From assembly GCF_044324785.1 (NCBI RefSeq), contig NZ_CP172127.1: a stretch of DNA of 64,000 nt. The stretch is one strand, 5' to 3'. Under the pieces are notes generated by a model that was given only the letters and a program-made list of their open reading frames with translations, was not told the origin of the DNA and searched no databases. This document shows positions 29,022-38,651 of this stretch, in pieces (position 1 is the first letter of the stretch; every line of letters starts with the position of its first letter). The stretch is from Escherichia coli (GTDB taxonomy: Bacteria; Pseudomonadota; Gammaproteobacteria; Enterobacterales; Enterobacteriaceae). The position numbers were made by a program, and so were the translations under genes.

Positions 29022-29766
29022 TTGAATTAAGGATATAATACTCGCTTCTAAGGTTGTTTCATGGTCACAGTTAACCTTCATTGTCCCCGTTGCCAGTCCG
29101 TTTAGGTTTACCGTCACGGGCAGAACCCCAAAAGACATGATCGATTCCGCGGCCGTGACTGTCACCGGGTATTTCAGCTCAGTTACTGTTACGAGCCCCG
29201 TAAACCGGGAGTTAAAGACCAAATCGCTGAAATGGCTTTCAACGGTGCCGGGGTTCGCTATACTGCCCGTACGCTGAAAATCGGCATTAATACAGTCATC
29301 CGAACTTTAAAAAACTCTCGCCACGAAGAATAACGTCATCCCCGGTCGCTCATGCTGATGTGGCACTCAACTGCGAACTTAGTCAGCAATGGAGCTTTGT
29401 CGGCAGTAAAGCGCGACAGCACTGGCTCTGGTACGTGTACAACACGAAAACTGGTGGTGTTCTGGCCTACACTTTTGGCCCCCGGACTGATGAAACCTGT
29501 CGTGAATTGCTGGCGCTGCTTACCCTTTTACCATCGGCATGTTGACCACTGACGAATGGGGTAGTTACACCAGAGAGTTACCAAAGGAGAAGCATCTGAC
29601 TGGTAAGATTTTTACTCAGCACATTGAGCGTAACAATCTGACCCTGAGAACCCGAATCAAACGTCTGGCCCGCAGAACCATCTATTTCTCGCGTTCTGTA
29701 GAACTTCATGAAAAAGTCATCGGTGCTTTTATCGAAAATATATGTTCTACTGATTGGAGTCATCAC
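29004..29766 (+). mobile_element. IS1-family insertion sequence, degenerate (insA disrupted, insB frameshifted)
   Basis: Left end ggtgatgcctccaa and right end ttggagtcatcac resemble IS1 terminal inverted repeats; ~763 bp; internal ORF fragments resemble InsB. No obvious flanking target-site duplication. Confidence 0.8.
29360..29763 (+). pseudogene. insB: IS1 transposase insB, frameshifted
   Basis: InsB-like peptides in two different frames (29360-29545 WSFVGSKARQHWLWYVY...; 29539-29853 DEWGSYTRE...IERNNLTLRTRIKRLARRTIYFSRSVELHEKVIG); the upstream insA frame is interrupted by a stop. Confidence 0.75.
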
Positions 29767-29866
29767 TCTTCTGATGAGCTTTCCTTGGATGATTACCAGA
29801 CTGAATACACAGCCAAAGATTTTTACCTCATTCTGCTCTTTTTTCTCAAATGACATATATTATATT

Positions 29867-30145
29867 TTACATCATATTCATAGGCATATGACATTCCCCC
29901 GCCCCCATTATGTCATTGTGGGTTGATGTTGGGCTTTCATAAAAAAATACATCTTTTTTTGAACTAGCATTAATTATATTTACTTTATACATTAAAATAT
30001 TTTCTCCATCTGGAAATATTTTAGCCACACAATATAAAGCAGCTAAATCCGAATTACTTAAAAATATATTGTCATCACTCATAACTCCAGCCATTAAATG
30101 ACTGGAGACTAAAGCAAGGAAATAACAACATTGTATTGCCTTCAT
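29867..30145 (-). CDS. candidate Rhs immunity protein (RhsI) for the orphan CT module
   Basis: Small AT-rich ORF immediately downstream of the orphan rhs-CT stop (30206); internal start at 30145 (MKAIQCCYFLALVSSHLMAG...) preceded by SD aagggag; ORF track's longer version starts at 30181. Function inferred from position only. Confidence 0.55.
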   Translation of the reverse strand: MKAIQCCYFLALVSSHLMAGVMSDDNIFLSNSDLAALYCVAKIFPDGENILMYKVNIINASSKKDVFFYESPTSTHNDIMGAGECHMPMNMM

Positions 30146-30205
30146 TTTAATTACTCCCTTGCCTGATAATTGTAACTCCATTCCCTTTAGCTTTGGGATT
30201 ATATT

Positions 30206-31636
30206 TTAGATAGGTGTTATTTGGTGTTCCCAAGTAACTACTGTATTCTTTTTTTCCATTCCATTCATATAAGAATTCGTTAAATCTTTGCTTGAAAAAT
30301 TTAGACTATCATAAACATCATTTTCTTTTGTTACTTTATTTCCTTTATCGTCAGAGTAAAAACCGTGAGTGTGATAATCGCCTACTCTCTCTGAACCTTC
30401 AGGGCGTTTTATATTTCGCAAGTCTACACTATCATTATCATTTGAACTTATCGGATTCATGGGGGAATATTCACCTTGCTTCTTACATATTAGTCCACCA
30501 TATTCTTTATTCTCGTTAATTGATTCTCCATTACACATTGCCAATGCAAATATTCCAATATCATCTATATTTTTTGATTTAAATTCATATAATCCTAATG
30601 GATCCATGCCATTCACCGGGCTCAGCGGATATGTATACAGGTTCCATCCCCCCTTCAGCCCAATCGGATCCTGAGTGATATACCGCCCCTGCAGCGGGTC
30701 ATAATAGCGGTGGCGGTTGTAATACAGGCCGGACTCCTCATCATACTGCTGCCCCGGCAGGCGGATGAGCTGCTGCAGTTGATGCGGGTTCTCTTCATTC
30801 AGCAGATTGCCCCACTCATCGTATTCTGCGCACCATTCTGTTGCCCCTTCCGTGCTGACAAGCGCCAGCGGCAGGCCGCGATGGTCGCAGTGGTACAGGT
30901 GGATTTTTCGCGCCGGCGTGTACACCGGGTCCATCTGGTTTTGCATCTGCTCCACCGTCAGGCCGCACGATGCCAGCCAGCGGCGGCTTTCCTCACTCAC
31001 CCGGTCAGCCAGGATTTCACTTTCCAGCCGGTCGAGCATCTGCACCAGCACCGGCGGGAACACCACACTGCCACCGTCTTCACCGCCGGACTGCTGAAGC
31101 GCATCCGCCAGGCTGCGGCGCTGCGTTTTCGCCAGCTCACCGGTGGCGGTTTCGACCCTGATGAGTGGCGTGAAGCTCCCCGGCTGATAAACCGTCTGGA
31201 TGCGGGTTCTGTCGTTCTGTATCGTGGTCAGCCGGTCGCCGTCCCAGCCGTACCAGGTCACTTCCGGTTTCCGTGACAGCGACATCCAGCCCGTCAGGTC
31301 CCGTTCACGCCGCCACACCCGTTTTGCCACCCTGCGGCCCAGCGGGTCGTAAAGATAGCGACTTTCGACCAGCGGCTCTGCATATTGTGTCCGCGTGTAG
31401 TGCACCAGCCGGTGCTGACTGTCGTAATGGTACCGGTGAGTCCGCTCATCATCCGTGCGGATAACCCCTTCCGGGATGAGGTCGGTTTTCTCTGTCAGCC
31501 TGCCGTGACGGTCATACCGGTAAAGATAGTGCGCGTCACGGGCGATACGGTTATCCGGCCACATGCTGAGGGTGCTGTCCGGGTGCAGCTCCGGGTCGGG
31601 CAGGCGGTTGCCTGCCGGGTCCGTGGCATACGGGAT
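30206..31636 (-). CDS. orphan Rhs C-terminal module: 3' part of the rhs core plus a distinct C-terminal toxin domain (5'-truncated gene)
   Basis: ORF 30206-31564 (452 aa); Rhs-core homology continues upstream to ~31636 with an in-frame stop beyond. Core ends with ...[28 protein letters not shown] (DPxGL), followed by a 127-aa unique AT-rich C-terminal domain ([10 protein letters not shown]...[12 protein letters not shown]...). Confidence 0.8.
30642..31636. repeat. ~1 kb direct repeat (rhs core 3' region), copy A, near-identical to 34963-35957
   Basis: Base-by-base comparison of the two intervals shows the same sequence with only a handful of substitutions at a constant offset of 4321 bp; the ORF track shows identical antisense peptides at 31273-31464 and 35594-35785. 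Confidence 0.9.
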
Positions 31637-31678: not shown

Positions 31679-32005
31679 TTATTTGTTTATAATGCGCTTA
31701 CTTAATACAAACCATTGAATATACCCTCCTGACAGAAAATAAAGCCATGTTATTATCGCCATAATATACTTACTATCAATCCTTACGCCAATAATGTCTG
31801 AAACAGTCCCTATAAATATTAGAGCAATAAAGAATACTATGCCTGTTGGAAAACATATTACCATCATTCCATAAGACATGAGACTAATTAACTCGCTCAC
31901 ATCACGAGTGGAGTCTAATAGTGAAAGTCTATGCATGGAAAAGAATAGTATTAAAAGCGATAAAGCCAGCCATGTAGCTCTGAATAAAAAAATAATACAT
32001 TTCAT
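31679..32005 (-). CDS. small hydrophobic membrane protein (about 3 TM segments); candidate orphan immunity protein
   Basis: 108-aa AT-rich ORF MKCIIFLFRATWLALSLLILFF... between the H-repeat element and the orphan rhs fragment; function inferred from context only. Confidence 0.45.
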   Translation of the reverse strand: MKCIIFLFRATWLALSLLILFFSMHRLSLLDSTRDVSELISLMSYGMMVICFPTGIVFFIALIFIGTVSDIIGVRIDSKYIMAIITWLYFLSGGYIQWFVLSKRIINK

Positions 32006-32039: not shown

Positions 32040-33330
32040 GTCCAATGTTATTTCCGGAGCACTTCATCTTACATGTTTCTAAAGAATCATTAGACCAGTC
32101 AGGGCAAGATTACGAAAGCCCGCTCCCCGCAAGGACTGACGCGAGATAGTTTCTGTCCATGGCTGCTTTTCGCATCTTACGTCTTAACCCTGCCTTGAAT
32201 ACCTTATCATTCGTCAAAATATTAATAGCAATGTGCCGTATCCCTGAAAATAATTCTGCTGCGTTTCCTCTTCTTATTTTGCAGTCGTCTTCATTCATTA
32301 CCACGTCCAGACGCCAGTGCAGCTTATTCTCCACGTGCCAGTGGTTTCGGATTGCTGTGGCGAACTTCTCAGCGGTTAAATCAGCAGAACTGATATAATA
32401 TCTGACCGTCATTTCTGGCTCTTTCTTTTATTCTGCTATTATTGACCGAAAGGAGACTGCCACGCATAATTTTTCAGTCCTTTCTATTCAAATGTAAAAT
32501 CAATAAGTTCATCAGCGACATCGCAAACAATATGAAGACGGATTTCTTCTCTGCCGTGACTCTTTTCACTAATTGCGTAACTGTCATGCTCTGGATTATT
32601 TAATTCTTTCAGCGGAAATGTTTCCTCAAAGGCTTTATTCAACCGCCCCTGGTTTCCTTTTACAGCGAATAAGTAATCACCACCCTGTTTTTGTATCTTC
32701 TCTGCAATATCTTTCTGGCAACCTATCGCATCAGTTGTGATGATTTTCCCTTTAATATACAAAATGTTAAGAAGTTCAGGGATAGCTGTGATCTCATTAG
32801 ATTTCTCATCCGTCCTGATCTGCCCCAGGACCAGAATGTGCATTGTTGAGAACGCACTAATAACATGAATCGCTCCCCTTCGGCGACTCTTATCATAAGA
32901 GTGTCGGAGCATTTTTCCATCAATTGCAATGACGTCTTTATCATCTGAAGAATGGCAGTCACGCATCCAGTTAATAAAGCACTCATGAAATTTTGCAGGG
33001 CTGATACAGGATACAACTCTGGCAATGGTATCGTGGACAGGAATACCATTTTCAAAATCACCGTATTGTTTTAAAAAATCGAGATGTGTTTCCCCAAAAT
33101 CCTCTATATCTTCCCAACCTTCTGCACCCGAAATAACGGCACAAATAGTCAACAGTAGAATATCCGATAATTTATGTTCCACTTTCCAGGCTTGTCTGTA
33201 ATCGGGGATAATAGAAATATGCTCCATCAATTTTTTAAGTTCCATTTTGTTCTCCTTAATTATGTAAGGAGTATTTGATCATGTATAAGCAATAAAAAAC
33301 AGCTTTAGGTAATGAGGAATATCTCAATTT
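32040..33330 (-). mobile_element. H-repeat (H-rpt) element, ISAs1-family, with a frameshifted transposase; boundaries approximate
   Basis: Two consecutive minus-strand ORFs in different frames (32484-33245 [55 protein letters not shown]...; 32110-32412 [44 protein letters not shown]...) together resemble the ~378-aa H-repeat-associated ISAs1-family transposase of E. coli Rhs elements. Confidence 0.8.
32110..33245 (-). pseudogene. ISAs1-family (H-repeat) transposase, split by a frameshift near 32413-32486
   Basis: N-terminal 253-aa and C-terminal 100-aa pieces are in different reading frames separated by ~70 bp. Confidence 0.8.
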
Positions 33331-33348: not shown

Positions 33349-33935
33349 TTATTTAGTACAAAAAAGCAGCGTTACGTGATCTTTCCCTGGCATGTCATTA
33401 GATGAACCAGTTATACAACCCTCGGAACAGAATCGAGGTCCTAAAGACGGACCAAAAGCGTTTAAACAACTATGTATTGAAAATCCATTACGATTATAAG
33501 TTCCTGTATTAACTGACGGTACTAATCGTATGCCGTCAGGTTTTCTATTGCTTGCTCCCGGGTCATTAACATTCCAACTCCATAGGCCTTGAGGTATTGG
33601 CCCTCTATTTATAAATGTGTACAACGGGGATTATTTTTACATTGCATATTATTACCAGAAGCGACTGGAATACTAAGCACATCATAAAAATTATCATCAC
33701 CTGGTATATCTGAAACACACGAAAGCATACCTAAAGTTATGCTGTATAAACAGGTGGCTAATCCCAAGGGGATCGATTCCAGAAATCGGGTTCAACGGAT
33801 ACTGATAAAAATTCCACCTACCTTCCAGCCCAATCGGAGCCTGAGTGTTATACCGCCCCTGCTGCGGTTAATGTTACCGATAATAGTTATAGTACAGCCC
33901 TGATTCATCATCATACTACTGCTGCGGCAGTCTGA
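33349..33935 (-). pseudogene. degenerate orphan rhs remnant (diverged core 3' end plus disrupted C-terminal region)
   Basis: 33800-33935 is a diverged, indel-containing copy of the rhs core 3' end (compare 34963-35100); downstream frames are interrupted; the 91-aa ORF 33349-33624 is in a different frame. Confidence 0.6.
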
Positions 33936-33948
33936 TGAATTATTGCTT

Positions 33949-34410
33949 TTACGGATTCTCCTTATTCTTCCTTCTATCCATTCGCTTTAGCTTTTTGAGA
34001 TCTTGAAGTTTGCTCTTTGCATCAATATTACCGTTATTTACAGCGAATTCCATCCAATAAATAGCTTTATTCAAATTATAATGTTCTGATAATATTGGAT
34101 TTGTATCCGATAAAAAAACCCCATAATTAAACTGCGCTGTAACATTCCCCTGAGATGCTGATCTTTCTAAGTATCGCAATTGTTTGTAAATGTTATTTTT
34201 AGTAAAGCAGTAATATTGATATAGTCGAAATGATGCCTCTGAATCACCATGTTGTGATTTATACTTCAGTTTCATCAACTTTTCTTCACTTAAATCATAG
34301 GTCATTGCTGTAGACCCCATCATACTTTCGTTTTGTTTTATTTTCACATCAGCACCATGCAATTGAAAAATAAAAGAAAAATAAAAAAATAGTAACAAGC
34401 ATGCTTTCAT
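33949..34410 (-). CDS. Sel1-like repeat protein with N-terminal signal peptide; candidate cognate Rhs immunity protein (RhsI)
   Basis: 153-aa AT-rich ORF starting 12 bp downstream of the main rhs stop; signal-like N-terminus MKACLLLFFYFSFIFQLHGA; Sel1/TPR-like motifs (...YQYYCFTKNNIYKQLRYLERSASQGNVTAQFNYGVFL...). Confidence 0.65.
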   Translation of the reverse strand: MKACLLLFFYFSFIFQLHGADVKIKQNESMMGSTAMTYDLSEEKLMKLKYKSQHGDSEASFRLYQYYCFTKNNIYKQLRYLERSASQGNVTAQFNYGVFLSDTNPILSEHYNLNKAIYWMEFAVNNGNIDAKSKLQDLKKLKRMDRRKNKENP

Positions 34411-34421
34411 ACATCTACAAC

Positions 34422-37400
34422 CTATCTTATATCACTGGGTTTTTCTGGCGTACCTTGCATATTAGAAATGGGGTGCCCAGATGGCCCATATGTTATCCAA
34501 TTACCAAGGTCTTTTGTTGTTATAGCCATTAGATCCTTATTTGAATTAAGGTTCGTTGGTGCTGTTAGCACTGTATCCATTTTTAACTTACCATTAGTTC
34601 CTCGCCCCCACCACGTCCATAGCGTGTCAGGTCCTATTACATTTGTATGTAACTCTTTAGCTAATTGGCTAGCAAATGAATTTTGTCCTTTACCTGTATT
34701 ACAAGAAAATAACCAAACTGTCATCCCATCTTTATAATTCCCATCAAATTTAATTAGATATGCTAGATCTTTAGCTGTCATGATACTGCGCGTTGCGGAT
34801 TCAATAGATGTGGGGGTACCATGCCCCCCGATTGTGAAAACGCCTGGGATATTAATCTCATCAGCTACAGAATGGATAAGATCACTTTCGGGGTATAAAT
34901 TTATATCAACCAAACCTTGCGGATCTACATTTATGACCGGATTCAACGGATACTGATAAAAATTCCATCCCCCCTTCAGCCCAATCGGATCCTGAGTGAT
35001 ATACCGCCCCTGCAGCGGGTCATAATAGCGGTGGCGGTTGTAATACAGGCCGGACTCCTCATCATACTGCTGACCCGGCAGGCGGATGAGCTGCTGCAGC
35101 TGGTGCGGGTTCTCTTCATTCAGCAGGTTGCCCCACTCATCGTATTCTGCGCACCATTCTGTTGCCCCTTCCGTGCTGACAAGCGCCAGCGGCAGGCCGC
35201 GATGGTCGCAGTGGTACAGGTGGATTTTTCGCGCCGGCGTGTACACCGGGTCCATCTGGTTTTGCATCTGCTCCACCGTCAGGCCGCACGATGCCAGCCA
35301 GCGGCGGCTTTCCTCACTCACCCGGTCAGTAAGGATTTCACTTTCCAGCCGGTCGAGCATCTGCACCAGCACCGGCGGGAACACCACACTGCCACCGTCT
35401 TCACCGCCGGACTGCTGAAGCGCATCCGCCAGGCTGCGGCGCTGCGTTTTCGCCAGCTCACCGGTGGCGGTTTCGACCCTGATGAGTGGCGTGAAGCTCC
35501 CCGGCTGATAAACCGTCTGGATGCGGGTTCTGTCGTTCTGTATCGTGGTCAGCCGGTCGCCGTCCCAGCCGTACCAGGTCACTTCCGGTTTCCGTGACAG
35601 CGACATCCAGCCCGTCAGGTCCCGTTCACGCCGCCACACCCGTTTTGCCACCCTGCGGCCCAGCGGGTCGTAAAGATAGCGACTTTCGACCAGCGGCTCT
35701 GCATATTGTGTCCGCGTGTAGTGCACCAGCCGGTGCTGACTGTCGTAATGGTACCGGTGAGTCCGCTCATCATCCGTGCGGATAACCCCTTCCGGGATGA
35801 GGTCGGTTTTCTCTGTCAGCCTGCCGTGACGGTCATACCAGTAAAGATAGTGCGCGTCACGGGCGATACGGTTATCCGGCCATGCGCTGAGGGTGCTGTC
35901 CGGGTGCAGCTCCGGGTCGGGCAGGCGGTTGCCCGCCGGGTCCGTGGCATACGGGATGCGGATATCAAGGTTCGCTGCCGTGGTGTGGACGCCGGTCAGC
36001 CTGCCGGTGTCGCTGTAGCTGTAACTCCGGGTCTGGCGCGGGCTGCTGATGCGGATGAGTTCGCCGTTGTCGTTCCAGGTGTAATCGCGGTCATACTGCA
36101 GGCTGTTCAGGTGCTGGCTCTGTAACTGCCCGGCAGGGGTGTAAGCGGTGGTGAGTTCATAACGGCCGAAGCTGCGCAGCGTTTCCCGGTGCAGGCGGTC
36201 GCGGGTGTACTCCACCAGCGGTGTGTCGCCGAGTTTCATGCCTGCCAGCCAGCCGCTGCCGTAAGTCAGCCATTCCACGGCGGGCAGGCTGTCCGGTATA
36301 CAGCGGTTCGCCAGCCCCTGCGCGTTGTACGCATGTCTGGTCTCATGCTGCCAGACCAGTGCTTCCGTCTGCGGGTGATGCACCGTCTGGCGCTCACCGG
36401 TCAGGCGGCCTTTCTCATCATACCCGTAATGCACCGTCACCCGGTGGCCTTCGCTGAGATGGCTGATGCCTGTCAGCCAGCCGCGTTCGTCATACTGCCA
36501 CTGCTCTGCAGGTTCACCCTTCACGGTACGCTGCGTGATGCGGTCTGCTTCGTCATAGTGCCAGTGGGTGACCAGCCCCTCATCCTCGCTGCGGATAAGT
36601 TTGCCGGTCAGGTCGTGGTGATAACGCTGTGTACGGCCGTCAAAGCCGGTTTCCTGTATCAGACGGTCAAGTACATCGTAACGGAAGGTGGTGTGGCTGC
36701 CGTTTTCACTGGTCAGGCGGATGACCCGTCCGGCAGCATCGTATTCCATACTGCGCGTCAGACCACCCTGCGTGGTACGGATGGCCTTTCCCCACGTATC
36801 GTACTGTGTCCCGTTTCTGCTGCCGTCCGGGGCAATGACGGCGGTCAGGTCACCGGCGGCGTTGTATTCATACCGCGTTTCATGGCCCTGCATGTCTTTC
36901 ACCGCAATTAACTGTCCACGGCTGTCGTATGCGCGGTACTGGCTCAGGCCTTCCTCGCGGTGCACCGCCGTCACCTGACCAAAACGGTCATGGTCATAAC
37001 GGGTTACATAACCGGAACAGTCAGTGACGGTCAGCAACTGACCGTAACGGCTCCATGTCATGGTTTTCCGGCTGCCGGTGGCATCTTCCGTTGCGCAGGG
37101 TAAGTCACTGTGTGGATTATCATAACGGTAGCGGGTGATATCGCCGTTGTGTGCGGTTTCCTGAATCAGACGGCCGGATTCATCATATTCCCGGCGCAAC
37201 TCCAGCCCGTCAGTCCCGGTGGCTGACGTTAACTGGTTGTGGTGGTTATAGTAAAACGCCGATGCCCTGCCATCCGGTGTGGTGATGCGCGTGATGAGTC
37301 CCGTCACCACATCCGGGCTGTACTCAGTCGTCCGGCCTGCGGCATCCGTCTGTGCCTTAAGCCTGCCCACCGCGTCAAACTGACTCTGCGTGACGCTGCC

Positions 37401-38651
37401 GTCCGCGTGTTCCTTTTTCACCACCCGCTTCAGCCCGCCTTCGCCCTGCGTGTGCAGGACTTCACGGCGGTCCAGGCTGTCGGTGATGGTGATGTGGTCT
37501 TTCTCATACTGATACGTGTAGCTTAAGCCTGCCGGGTTTAGCTGTTCTGTCACCCGCCCGTCACTGTCGTAACGGTAACGGATTTCCGGCCGGCCCGTGT
37601 GACGGTGCGCCACCATCCGGCCCCGGTATTTATCATCGTAAGTAAAGCTGCGCACCTGTGTGCCGCTGCGGTCATACACCGCCGCCAGTTCGCCGCGTGG
37701 CGTCCAGCCATAGCGTACCAGCGGCGCGGCTGGCAGGTTGTCCGGATATTCCGGGTCGTGCGTCAGCCACACGGCAGACAGACGGATGCCGTTGTCCCGG
37801 CCATATTCGGTGTAACCCGGCAGGGTATCAGGAAAAGCGGACGGTTCCGCCCCGCCGGAAATGGCCTGCTGCCGGGCCTCTTCTGCCCGCAACGCCTGCG
37901 TGGTCAGTACCAGCCGGAAGTGACGCCCGGCACCATCCGTCACGCCGGTGATTTCGCCGCTGAATTCGCCGCCAGCCTCACGGTGGAACGTCTGTGTGCG
38001 CCCGAAGCGGTCCACCAGCCCGGTCAGTACCCGGTACGGCGGCAGTGGCGCAGGCAGCACCTCATCCGCCTCCGGCACCCGCTCACACCAGCCGAGTACC
38101 CACCACGGCCCCTGCGGACTGTTCGTCGCCAGATAACGATGCGGACTCAGGCGAAGCTCTTCCGGCAGCGCCTGCCAGAGTGCGGCCAGCCGGTGACCTT
38201 CATCCAGTTTCGCCACGCCGCCGCGCACCAGCCAGAGTGACTCGCTGCGGCTGTAACCGTCCTCACCGGGAAACAGGTGCTCAAAATACAGGCTTCTGCC
38301 GCCGTTATCACTGAGTATCAGTGTGTTATCGCGCAGCTGTAAGCGGATATCCGCAGGCATTTTCCAGCCGGGGCCGAGGCTCCCCACCGGCGCGGGCGTT
38401 TTTGTCCGGTAACTGCTGTAGGTGCGGGAGAGGATGAACGGCAGCGGGCCGGGCAGGGCAAGGTCGGTTTCTCCGGGAAGGACCTTCGCACCGAGCAGCG
38501 GATTGACCGGATGGCCGGACGTCACCCCGCCGGGGCACACCGAACAGGCCACGCCGGTGGGGGCACCAATACGTACCCCGGCTGAACCCTGAACAATGCT
38601 ACCGCCATACTGCGTCATGTCGCCCTGACGCGCCGCCGGTTTTCCGCTCAT
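34422..38651 (-). CDS. rhs: full-length Rhs protein (PAAR-like N-terminal domain, YD-repeat core, DPxGL, unique C-terminal toxin domain)
   Basis: 1409-aa ORF; N-terminus [42 protein letters not shown] typical of E. coli Rhs; many YD/RYxYD repeats; core ends ...[11 protein letters not shown]; 162-aa C-terminal domain ([10 protein letters not shown]...FTIGGHGTP...[10 protein letters not shown]...) not recognised by me. Confidence 0.95.
34963..35957. repeat. ~1 kb direct repeat (rhs core 3' region), copy B, near-identical to 30642-31636
   Basis: See copy A; lies within the main rhs gene. Confidence 0.9.

Follow-up and report, generated by a model that had tools for sequence, protein, structure and literature searches.

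Within a 64,000-nucleotide stretch of the Escherichia coli contig NZ_CP172127.1 (hereafter the window), an Rhs protein encoded on the minus strand ends in a 162-residue tail. The tail is predicted to be a cysteine peptidase of clan CD in minimal form, with His1277 and Cys1317 as its catalytic dyad. The gene that follows encodes a YibG-like protein with Sel1/TPR similarity, the predicted cognate immunity protein. We consider it likely that the locus encodes a clan CD cysteine-peptidase toxin that uses this dyad and is countered by YibG-like immunity. The tail would thus represent an unmodelled and uncharacterised Tox-Caspase/clan CD polymorphic-toxin domain, and possibly the first antibacterial toxin of caspase fold to act in the periplasm.

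The Rhs open reading frame (ORF; 34422..38651, minus strand) encodes 1409 aa. Residues 1-1242 (34926..38651, minus strand) comprise the N-terminal region and the shell of YD repeats, which serve delivery and encapsulation. They are followed by DPQGL at residues 1243-1247 (34911..34925, minus strand), by its position the predicted C-terminal autoproteolysis and demarcation site. The C-terminal toxin domain then occupies residues 1248-1409 (34425..34910, minus strand), and with the stop codon at 34422-34424 the range 34422-34925 comprises DPQGL, tail and stop. Against NCBIfam, the RHS_core equivalog ("RHS element core protein") covered residues 1-1247 with 2626 bits (cut-off, 2000), YD repeats were present, and Rhs_assc_core was found at residues 1170-1247; Pfam added DUF6531 at residues 46-123 and RHS repeats. 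Since the RHS_core model stops at residue 1247, the tail lies outside the conserved Rhs core. The GC content is 39.1% in the tail, 62.0% in the Rhs core and 31.2% in the downstream ORF. The original prediction, made from the DNA sequence before any search, had described a 162-residue tail after DPQGL that was AT rich and unrelated to the core; the length proved exact and the description held in both respects. The protein is therefore an Rhs polymorphic toxin of the E. coli RHS element core type, with the core model, a DPxGL boundary, an AT-rich tail and a small ORF behind it. The locus is assigned to the RhsF type because the rhs island lies between metJ/yiiX and rpmE/priA, with the same arrangement in the near-identical chromosome NZ_CP026723.1, where the names given by the NCBI annotation pipeline (PGAP) include "RHS element protein dsORF-f3".

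A word-indexed protein search with the tail retrieved only the E. coli copies and three relatives at 44-47% identity, and the family emerged only from a profile search. The profile A1, built from the tail and these three relatives, was run exhaustively over 1.84 billion cluster representatives and found 729 proteins at E ≤ 1e-3, including 116 at E ≤ 1e-10. From the family we used a 66-sequence alignment (A2) and counted residue conservation over 170 aligned domains. The predicted catalytic His is His1277 (His30 of the tail; codon 34821..34823, minus strand) in the motif VFTIGGHG, and the predicted nucleophile is Cys1317 (Cys70 of the tail; codon 34701..34703, minus strand) in the motif VWLFSCNTG, both chosen by conservation and by an alignment with legumain described below. 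The His was retained in 168/170 domains, the following Gly in 165/170 and the Cys in 169/170; in A2 both His and Cys were invariant, and Cys1317 is the sole Cys of the tail. The position before the Cys was small in 159/170 domains (Ser in 104, Ala in 47 and Gly in 8). In the structural model presented below, a hydrophobic strand precedes each residue, VFTIG (tail residues 24-28) before the His and VWLFS (tail residues 64-68) before the Cys. This is the pattern of clan CD: the His comes before the Cys, as His-Gly and Ala/Ser-Cys, each after a hydrophobic strand. The original prediction had pointed to a His-Gly and a Ser-Cys in conserved-looking surroundings as a possible hydrolase pair. Both are there, as H1277-G1278 and S1316-C1317, and the His and Cys are near invariant, but the Ser is not conserved (104/170). 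A Ser nucleophile in an alpha/beta-hydrolase fold was rejected on this ground, since the invariant Ser of a GxSxG motif is not found.

In the family, the domain is usually terminal. The final copy lay no more than 90 residues from the C-terminus in 146 of 165 family proteins, a PxGL-D[IL]N[LF] junction was found in 51 of the 165, and 21 carried several copies, 2-6 of them internal, in giant proteins. The family consensus shows no conspicuous charged residue conserved in the pocket. P1 could therefore be neutral or hydrophobic, as in the cysteine protease domains (CPDs) of larger toxins, although this is speculation. Several family members are of interest in their own right. The proteins P0028-P0032, P0036 and P0040 (3,100-6,800 aa; locus L010) contain 3-6 internal copies of the His/Cys domain. 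Among them P0028, with 4395 aa and four or five copies, starts with a WXG100-type region and hence implies export by a type VII system, and one of its copies has a degenerate dyad (VGT for HGS and GH for SC). The AFDB entry R7V9C4 ([quoted passage not shown]), labelled as coming from the annelid Capitella teleta, is 44% identical to the tail over 102 residues; either the assembly contains bacterial contamination or an Rhs fragment may have been gained by horizontal transfer.

To what fold the tail belongs was addressed by modelling. AlphaFold gave a poor model from four sequences, with a predicted local distance difference test score (pLDDT) of 61. With A2, AlphaFold2 gave a pLDDT of 93.1 and a predicted template modelling score (pTM) of 0.89, and AFDB models of identical E. 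coli proteins superposed on the resulting tail model with template modelling (TM) scores of 0.90-0.98. The 16 best structural matches to this model were clan CD throughout. The highest score, 8.6, was that of Tce1 (9qpe_G), a DUF4347 protein and type VI secretion system (T6SS) cargo of Pseudomonas aeruginosa, followed by the Vibrio cholerae MARTX CPD (8.1), the TcdA CPD (7.7), Lys-gingipain (7.2) and CHAT (6.6), and then by TcdB, legumain/asparaginyl endopeptidases, clostripain-like C11 peptidases, GPI transamidase, RgpB and caspase-9 (6.5-4.9). In the model, the alpha/beta fold of the tail superposes on the cores of caspase, legumain, gingipain and CPDs, as expected of clan CD.

Sequence comparisons of the relatives led to the same clan. 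When the 66 family members were compared with Pfam one by one, DUF4347 was matched by 3 members at E ≤ 1e-3 and by 11 at E ≤ 0.1 (best E, 1.5e-5), and other members matched Peptidase_C80 (at E ≤ 1e-3 in only 1/66), Peptidase_C13, CHAT and Peptidase_C25. The best match of the A2 profile to PDB sequences was the asparaginyl endopeptidase 6azt (legumain), which at an E of 0.2 is not significant; the alignment placed the HG of the family on the HG of legumain and the family Cys on the Cys of EACESG. Relatives in AFDB50 at 33-34% identity (E of about 1e-11) bore the names "Peptidase C80 family protein" and "DUF4347 domain-containing protein". Because the structural matches, the Pfam scan, the profile alignment and the AFDB names agree, the fold is recognisable as that of clan CD, and on the predicted model the tail is a minimal cysteine peptidase of this clan. 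The original prediction had found no recognisable fold in the tail, which no longer stands, and the AlphaFold model that it called for turned out confident and of clan CD type. Its suggestion of an undescribed toxin family survives in part: the domain is without a Pfam or NCBIfam model, but its class was predicted in 2012 as Tox-Caspase.

The YibG-like gene (33949..34410, minus strand) begins 11 nt past the toxin stop and encodes 153 aa; it is the Sel1-like ORF that had been noticed downstream, and it is real. In Pfam the protein matched TPR_27 (E = 4.9e-4) and Sel1 (E = 0.5) and nothing else. YibG-like homologues were located directly downstream of toxin homologues in five further loci, giving six with the window: the Salmonella loci L003 and L005, the metagenomic Rhs loci L007 and L011, and L008, where the gene order is vgrG, PAAR, two small genes, an rhs gene with this type of tail and a Sel1-like gene, and where the toxin relative is 38% identical to the tail. 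The six YibG-like proteins matched each other in pairwise blastp with E values from 1e-7 to 1e-38, and in each locus the yibG start lay some 6-15 nt past the toxin stop. The linkage of toxin and YibG is thus kept while toxin identity falls below 40%, and because of this persistence the tail and the YibG-like gene have, at the level of sequence, the signature of a toxin-immunity pair.

The N-terminus of the immunity protein bears on where the toxin would act. All full-length YibG versions examined start with M-K/R, followed by at least 12 hydrophobic residues and a small-residue site. The N-terminus of the window protein reads MKACLLLFFYFSFIFQLHG/AD and that of the L011 homologue MKKHQMLLTCLLVSSFNIMQA/D, and other homologues begin with MRFVIIFIALMVSFYTFGG, MKIKILLLLLFPLICQSQG and others. 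Hydrophobic character is conserved here and the sequence has diverged, in homologues of 49-66% identity and in others that go down to 25-50%. Residues 1 to about 21 of the window protein (34348-34410, minus strand) are therefore probably a Sec signal peptide, and the immunity protein is probably periplasmic. Because it reads as exported, we lean slightly towards the periplasm or cell envelope as the site of action of the toxin; the single Cys of the tail is compatible with such an oxidising compartment. More tentatively, and with somewhat less than even confidence, we propose that this is the first clan CD-fold antibacterial toxin to act in the target periplasm, where its substrate would be a protein or a peptide linkage of the envelope and a secreted protein with Sel1 repeats would block it. 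In the open-access and bioRxiv literature we found no antibacterial clan CD toxin with experimental work or a known substrate, which is not proof that there is none.

The module is the same as E. coli K-12 yibJ-yibG at the rhsA locus, with 97.7% DNA identity over 1492 bases, and a megablast search with 33900-34950 found it in 3510 of 5426 complete E. coli genomes. In K-12 (L002; NC_000913.3, 6222-7177), yibJ contains the whole toxin domain with one in-frame stop, a Gln codon changed to a stop 12 codons past the catalytic Cys (SFAS*LAKEL), and yibG is intact. Because yibJ has this stop and yibG does not, the K-12 pair fits an orphan toxin that was lost while its immunity gene was retained. K-12 thus has an orphan cassette with an interrupted toxin, whereas the window has the intact tail of a full-length Rhs protein at the yiiX-rpmE (RhsF-type) locus. 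The tail of "RhsA" (EDL933_4854) and z5018 of enterohaemorrhagic E. coli (EHEC) EDL933 are also the same module as that of the window, and the published EHEC primer rhsA2R matches the window exactly at 34807-34825, over the codons for GHGTPTS. An in-silico study of EHEC EDL933 from 2020 reported that I-TASSER found the RhsA tail similar to PDB 3HO6 with a TM score of 0.73, named z5018 as a TPR/Sel1 immunity candidate and read the function of the tail as small-GTPase inactivation (PMC7216683). The small-GTPase inference appears mistaken, because 3HO6 is the cysteine protease domain of TcdA and not its glucosyltransferase domain. Current annotation has "RHS repeat-associated core domain" and "sel1 repeat family protein" at these genes, and neither Pfam nor NCBIfam has a model for the toxin. 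E. coli also has a paralogue of this tail (A0A376S9M4, A0A2U2V405 and A0A9P2VKJ6; O157 included), likewise a caspase-like Rhs C-terminus, which is 33-35% identical to the first. It may be the tail of the EHEC "PAAR" protein z0268; the z0268 tail was modelled on the V. cholerae RtxA CPD in the same EHEC study (PMC7216683).

For Rhs proteins, encapsulation in the YD shell, autoproteolytic release and T6SS delivery are established, as is cleavage after the Leu of a DPQGL-type motif. By analogy, the Rhs shell would enclose the tail and release it by a cut after DPQGL, and the tail would enter a neighbouring bacterium, probably through a T6SS, a route suggested by Rhs biology and by the relative in the vgrG-PAAR operon of L008. 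In the target it would fold into a beta-alpha-beta core, with His1277 ending the strand VFTIG and Cys1317 ending the strand VWLFS, and the predicted dyad would hydrolyse peptide bonds of at least one target protein, presumably of the envelope. The producer would be protected by the co-transcribed, exported YibG-like Sel1-repeat protein. Proteolysis by the tail, its compartment and its delivery route are proposed here from the sequence, the predicted model and what is known of Rhs proteins.

A number of observations count against this interpretation. As a single sequence, the tail had no match in Pfam even at E ≤ 10, hence none to the Pfam Peptidase_C80 or DUF4347 models, and none in NCBIfam, PADLOC or, by phmmer, PDB sequences; a four-sequence profile likewise matched nothing among PDB sequences. 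The Foldseek comparison that the original prediction had asked for was not significant against PDB (best E, 0.018), although legumain-type and MARTX CPD entries still came first. The proximity of the two dyad residues is suggested only by their positions at strand ends and by superposition of the model on known enzymes. With regard to delivery, the PAAR motif match at Rhs residues 2-20 was weak (Pfam, E = 0.21), and within the 64 kb no vgrG or other T6SS gene adjoins this rhs. With regard to the compartment, the signal peptide was judged solely by eye and from hydropathy, and the EHEC annotation of z5018 (132 aa) starts 21 codons later and leaves out the hydrophobic segment (PMC7216683). The K-12 copy of the toxin is a pseudogene. 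The nearest solved relatives, Tce1 and Tce2, lack immunity genes and did not harm E. coli, so clan CD effectors are not necessarily antibacterial. Finally, we found in the open-access and bioRxiv literature no experimental study of the tail domain, its close relatives or yibJ/yibG, an absence that is not proof.

Of the other explanations, most share the fold and differ in where, or on what, the domain would act. The same clan CD protease toxin could work in the cytoplasm of the target, the hydrophobic N-terminus of YibG being a membrane anchor or not translated at all. Most characterised Rhs tails act in the cytoplasm, the targets of the cysteine protease toxins Cpe1 and StbD-CT are likewise cytoplasmic, and the z5018 annotation begins past the hydrophobic segment; yet an M-K/R-hydrophobic N-terminus kept in six loci, at a start so close behind the toxin stop, would be unexpected if it were untranslated, and we regard a cytoplasmic site as unlikely. 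The probable export of the immunity protein would also suit a toxin with non-proteolytic chemistry in the envelope, of transpeptidase or amidase type, directed at peptidoglycan stem peptides or at the link between Lpp and peptidoglycan. Some clan CD enzymes are indeed transamidases or ligases (GPI8 and asparaginyl ligases), and GPI transamidase and asparaginyl peptide ligases are among the structural neighbours of the tail, but nothing specific speaks for such chemistry and we know of no clan CD enzyme that acts on peptidoglycan, which makes it improbable. A serine esterase or lipase resembling alpha/beta-hydrolases, using the Ser of Ser-Cys, was considered as well, given that the order of the motifs, with HG first and then a nucleophile preceded by a small residue, looks superficially like an oxyanion HG with a nucleophile elbow; in view of the variable Ser we give it next to no credence.

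It is also conceivable that the domain is not itself a toxin and is an auto-processing or releasing peptidase like those of MARTX and TcdA/B. Zhang et al. regard most caspase-like domains of polymorphic toxins as releasing peptidases (PMC3482391), and the 21 relatives with multiple internal copies in giant proteins, such as P0028, would suit that role. Here, however, the tail is the last domain with nothing downstream to free, Rhs has a cleavage site of its own in DPQGL, and a dedicated, conserved immunity-like gene adjoins; in addition, the tail is acidic (pI 5.7; 13 Lys and Arg, as 10 Lys and 3 Arg), whereas the pocket of CPDs for inositol hexakisphosphate (InsP6) is strongly basic. A CPD-like autoprocessing role was rejected on account of the terminal position and the immunity gene, and we hold it to be very improbable. 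We attach, if anything, slightly less weight to an anti-eukaryotic role, in which the effector would be aimed at host cells as are Tce2, OspB and the CPDs. It would accord with the origin of Tce1, the solved structure nearest to the tail, and of its paralogue Tce2 in a T6SS linked to eukaryotic targets and with the Cys-dependent toxicity of Tce2 in yeast. In contrast to Tce1 and Tce2, though, the tail has a tightly linked, co-varying immunity-like gene, and its domain occurs in arrays of orphan toxin-immunity cassettes, which are typical of interbacterial competition. The reading that we prefer remains an antibacterial clan CD peptidase toxin with YibG-like immunity.

The remainder of the rhs island contains further cassette-like features and mobile-element remnants, all on the minus strand unless stated. 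An orphan rhs fragment of 452 aa at 30206-31564 lacks an N-terminus and has another tail after DPLGL, which matched Pfam DUF4329 (E, 6e-13) and contains a GDYHTHG motif. Behind it, at 29867-30181, lies an ORF of 104 aa, whose PGAP name in the near-identical genome is "RHS element protein dsORF-f3"; fragment and ORF together resemble another cassette of toxin and immunity genes. A decayed orphan rhs tail at 33349-33910 separates the Sel1 gene from an insertion sequence (IS) element. It consists of an Rhs core end full of stops, followed by a 91-aa ORF that has a weak Tlde1/YkuD L,D-transpeptidase-like motif, GFSIHSC…SEGCI (Pfam Tlde1_dom E, 0.011; YkuD E, 0.12). Mobile-element remnants, named after the annotation of NZ_CP026723.1, lie at 32110-33245, 31679-32005 and 29352-29853 (plus strand) and comprise a frameshifted ISAs1/H-repeat transposase in two ORFs, a small membrane ORF resembling ybfB and an IS1 that is also frameshifted.

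The clan CD assignment provides a testable catalytic dyad, H1277/C1317. If true, action in the periplasm would give a function to the K-12 y-genes yibJ and yibG, of a module that roughly two thirds of E. coli genomes carry, and competition between bacteria would gain a new class of targets through a caspase-fold protease active in that compartment. Fold, toxin class and Rhs context all agree with earlier predictions, and the known picture is filled in and not changed.

Among the closest known systems is the Tox-Caspase class. It was defined by Zhang et al. in 2012 as a caspase-like fold with His and Cys, predicted as a toxin domain at the C-termini of polymorphic toxins, with T6SS among the delivery routes and with caspase-repeat arrays in giant actinobacterial toxins (PMC3482391). 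Like Tox-Caspase, the tail has the conserved His and Cys and a caspase-like fold, is the C-terminal-most domain of an Rhs/polymorphic toxin and is followed by a predicted immunity gene, and its relatives include internal copy arrays in giant proteins. The class is a purely computational prediction, and Imm36 is listed as its immunity family. The partner of the tail, in contrast, is YibG-like, with Sel1/TPR similarity and a predicted signal peptide; Imm36 was rejected for the downstream protein, which matches TPR_27 and Sel1 only. At the class level the tail falls under Tox-Caspase.

Tce1 (PA0256; PDB 9qpe) and Tce2 are Hcp3 cargo of the P. aeruginosa H3-T6SS and putative CPD-like effectors, for which the absence of immunity genes, the lack of toxicity in E. 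coli and the Cys-dependent toxicity of Tce2 in yeast were reported (PMC13323088). Tce1 is the closest solved structure to the tail model, yet shares only 12% sequence identity with it. The two are stand-alone Hcp cargo without an immunity gene and probably anti-eukaryotic, whereas the tail is an Rhs C-terminus with an immunity-like gene. The CPDs of peptidase family C80 (MARTX and TcdA/TcdB) serve in internal autoprocessing, are activated by host InsP6 and cut after Leu. At 162 aa the tail is shorter than these domains, and it is acidic, stands at the end of its protein and has a predicted immunity protein as partner. Cpe1 and StbD-CT, the two interbacterial cysteine protease toxins whose targets are known, cleave GyrB and ParE in the cytoplasm. 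They resemble the tail, as predicted here, in being antibacterial polymorphic-toxin C-termini, cysteine peptidases and partners of dedicated immunity proteins. They were rejected as relatives because of their papain/C39-type fold: they belong to clan CA, with the Cys before the His, whereas the tail has the clan CD order of His before Cys and an immunity protein that is probably periplasmic.

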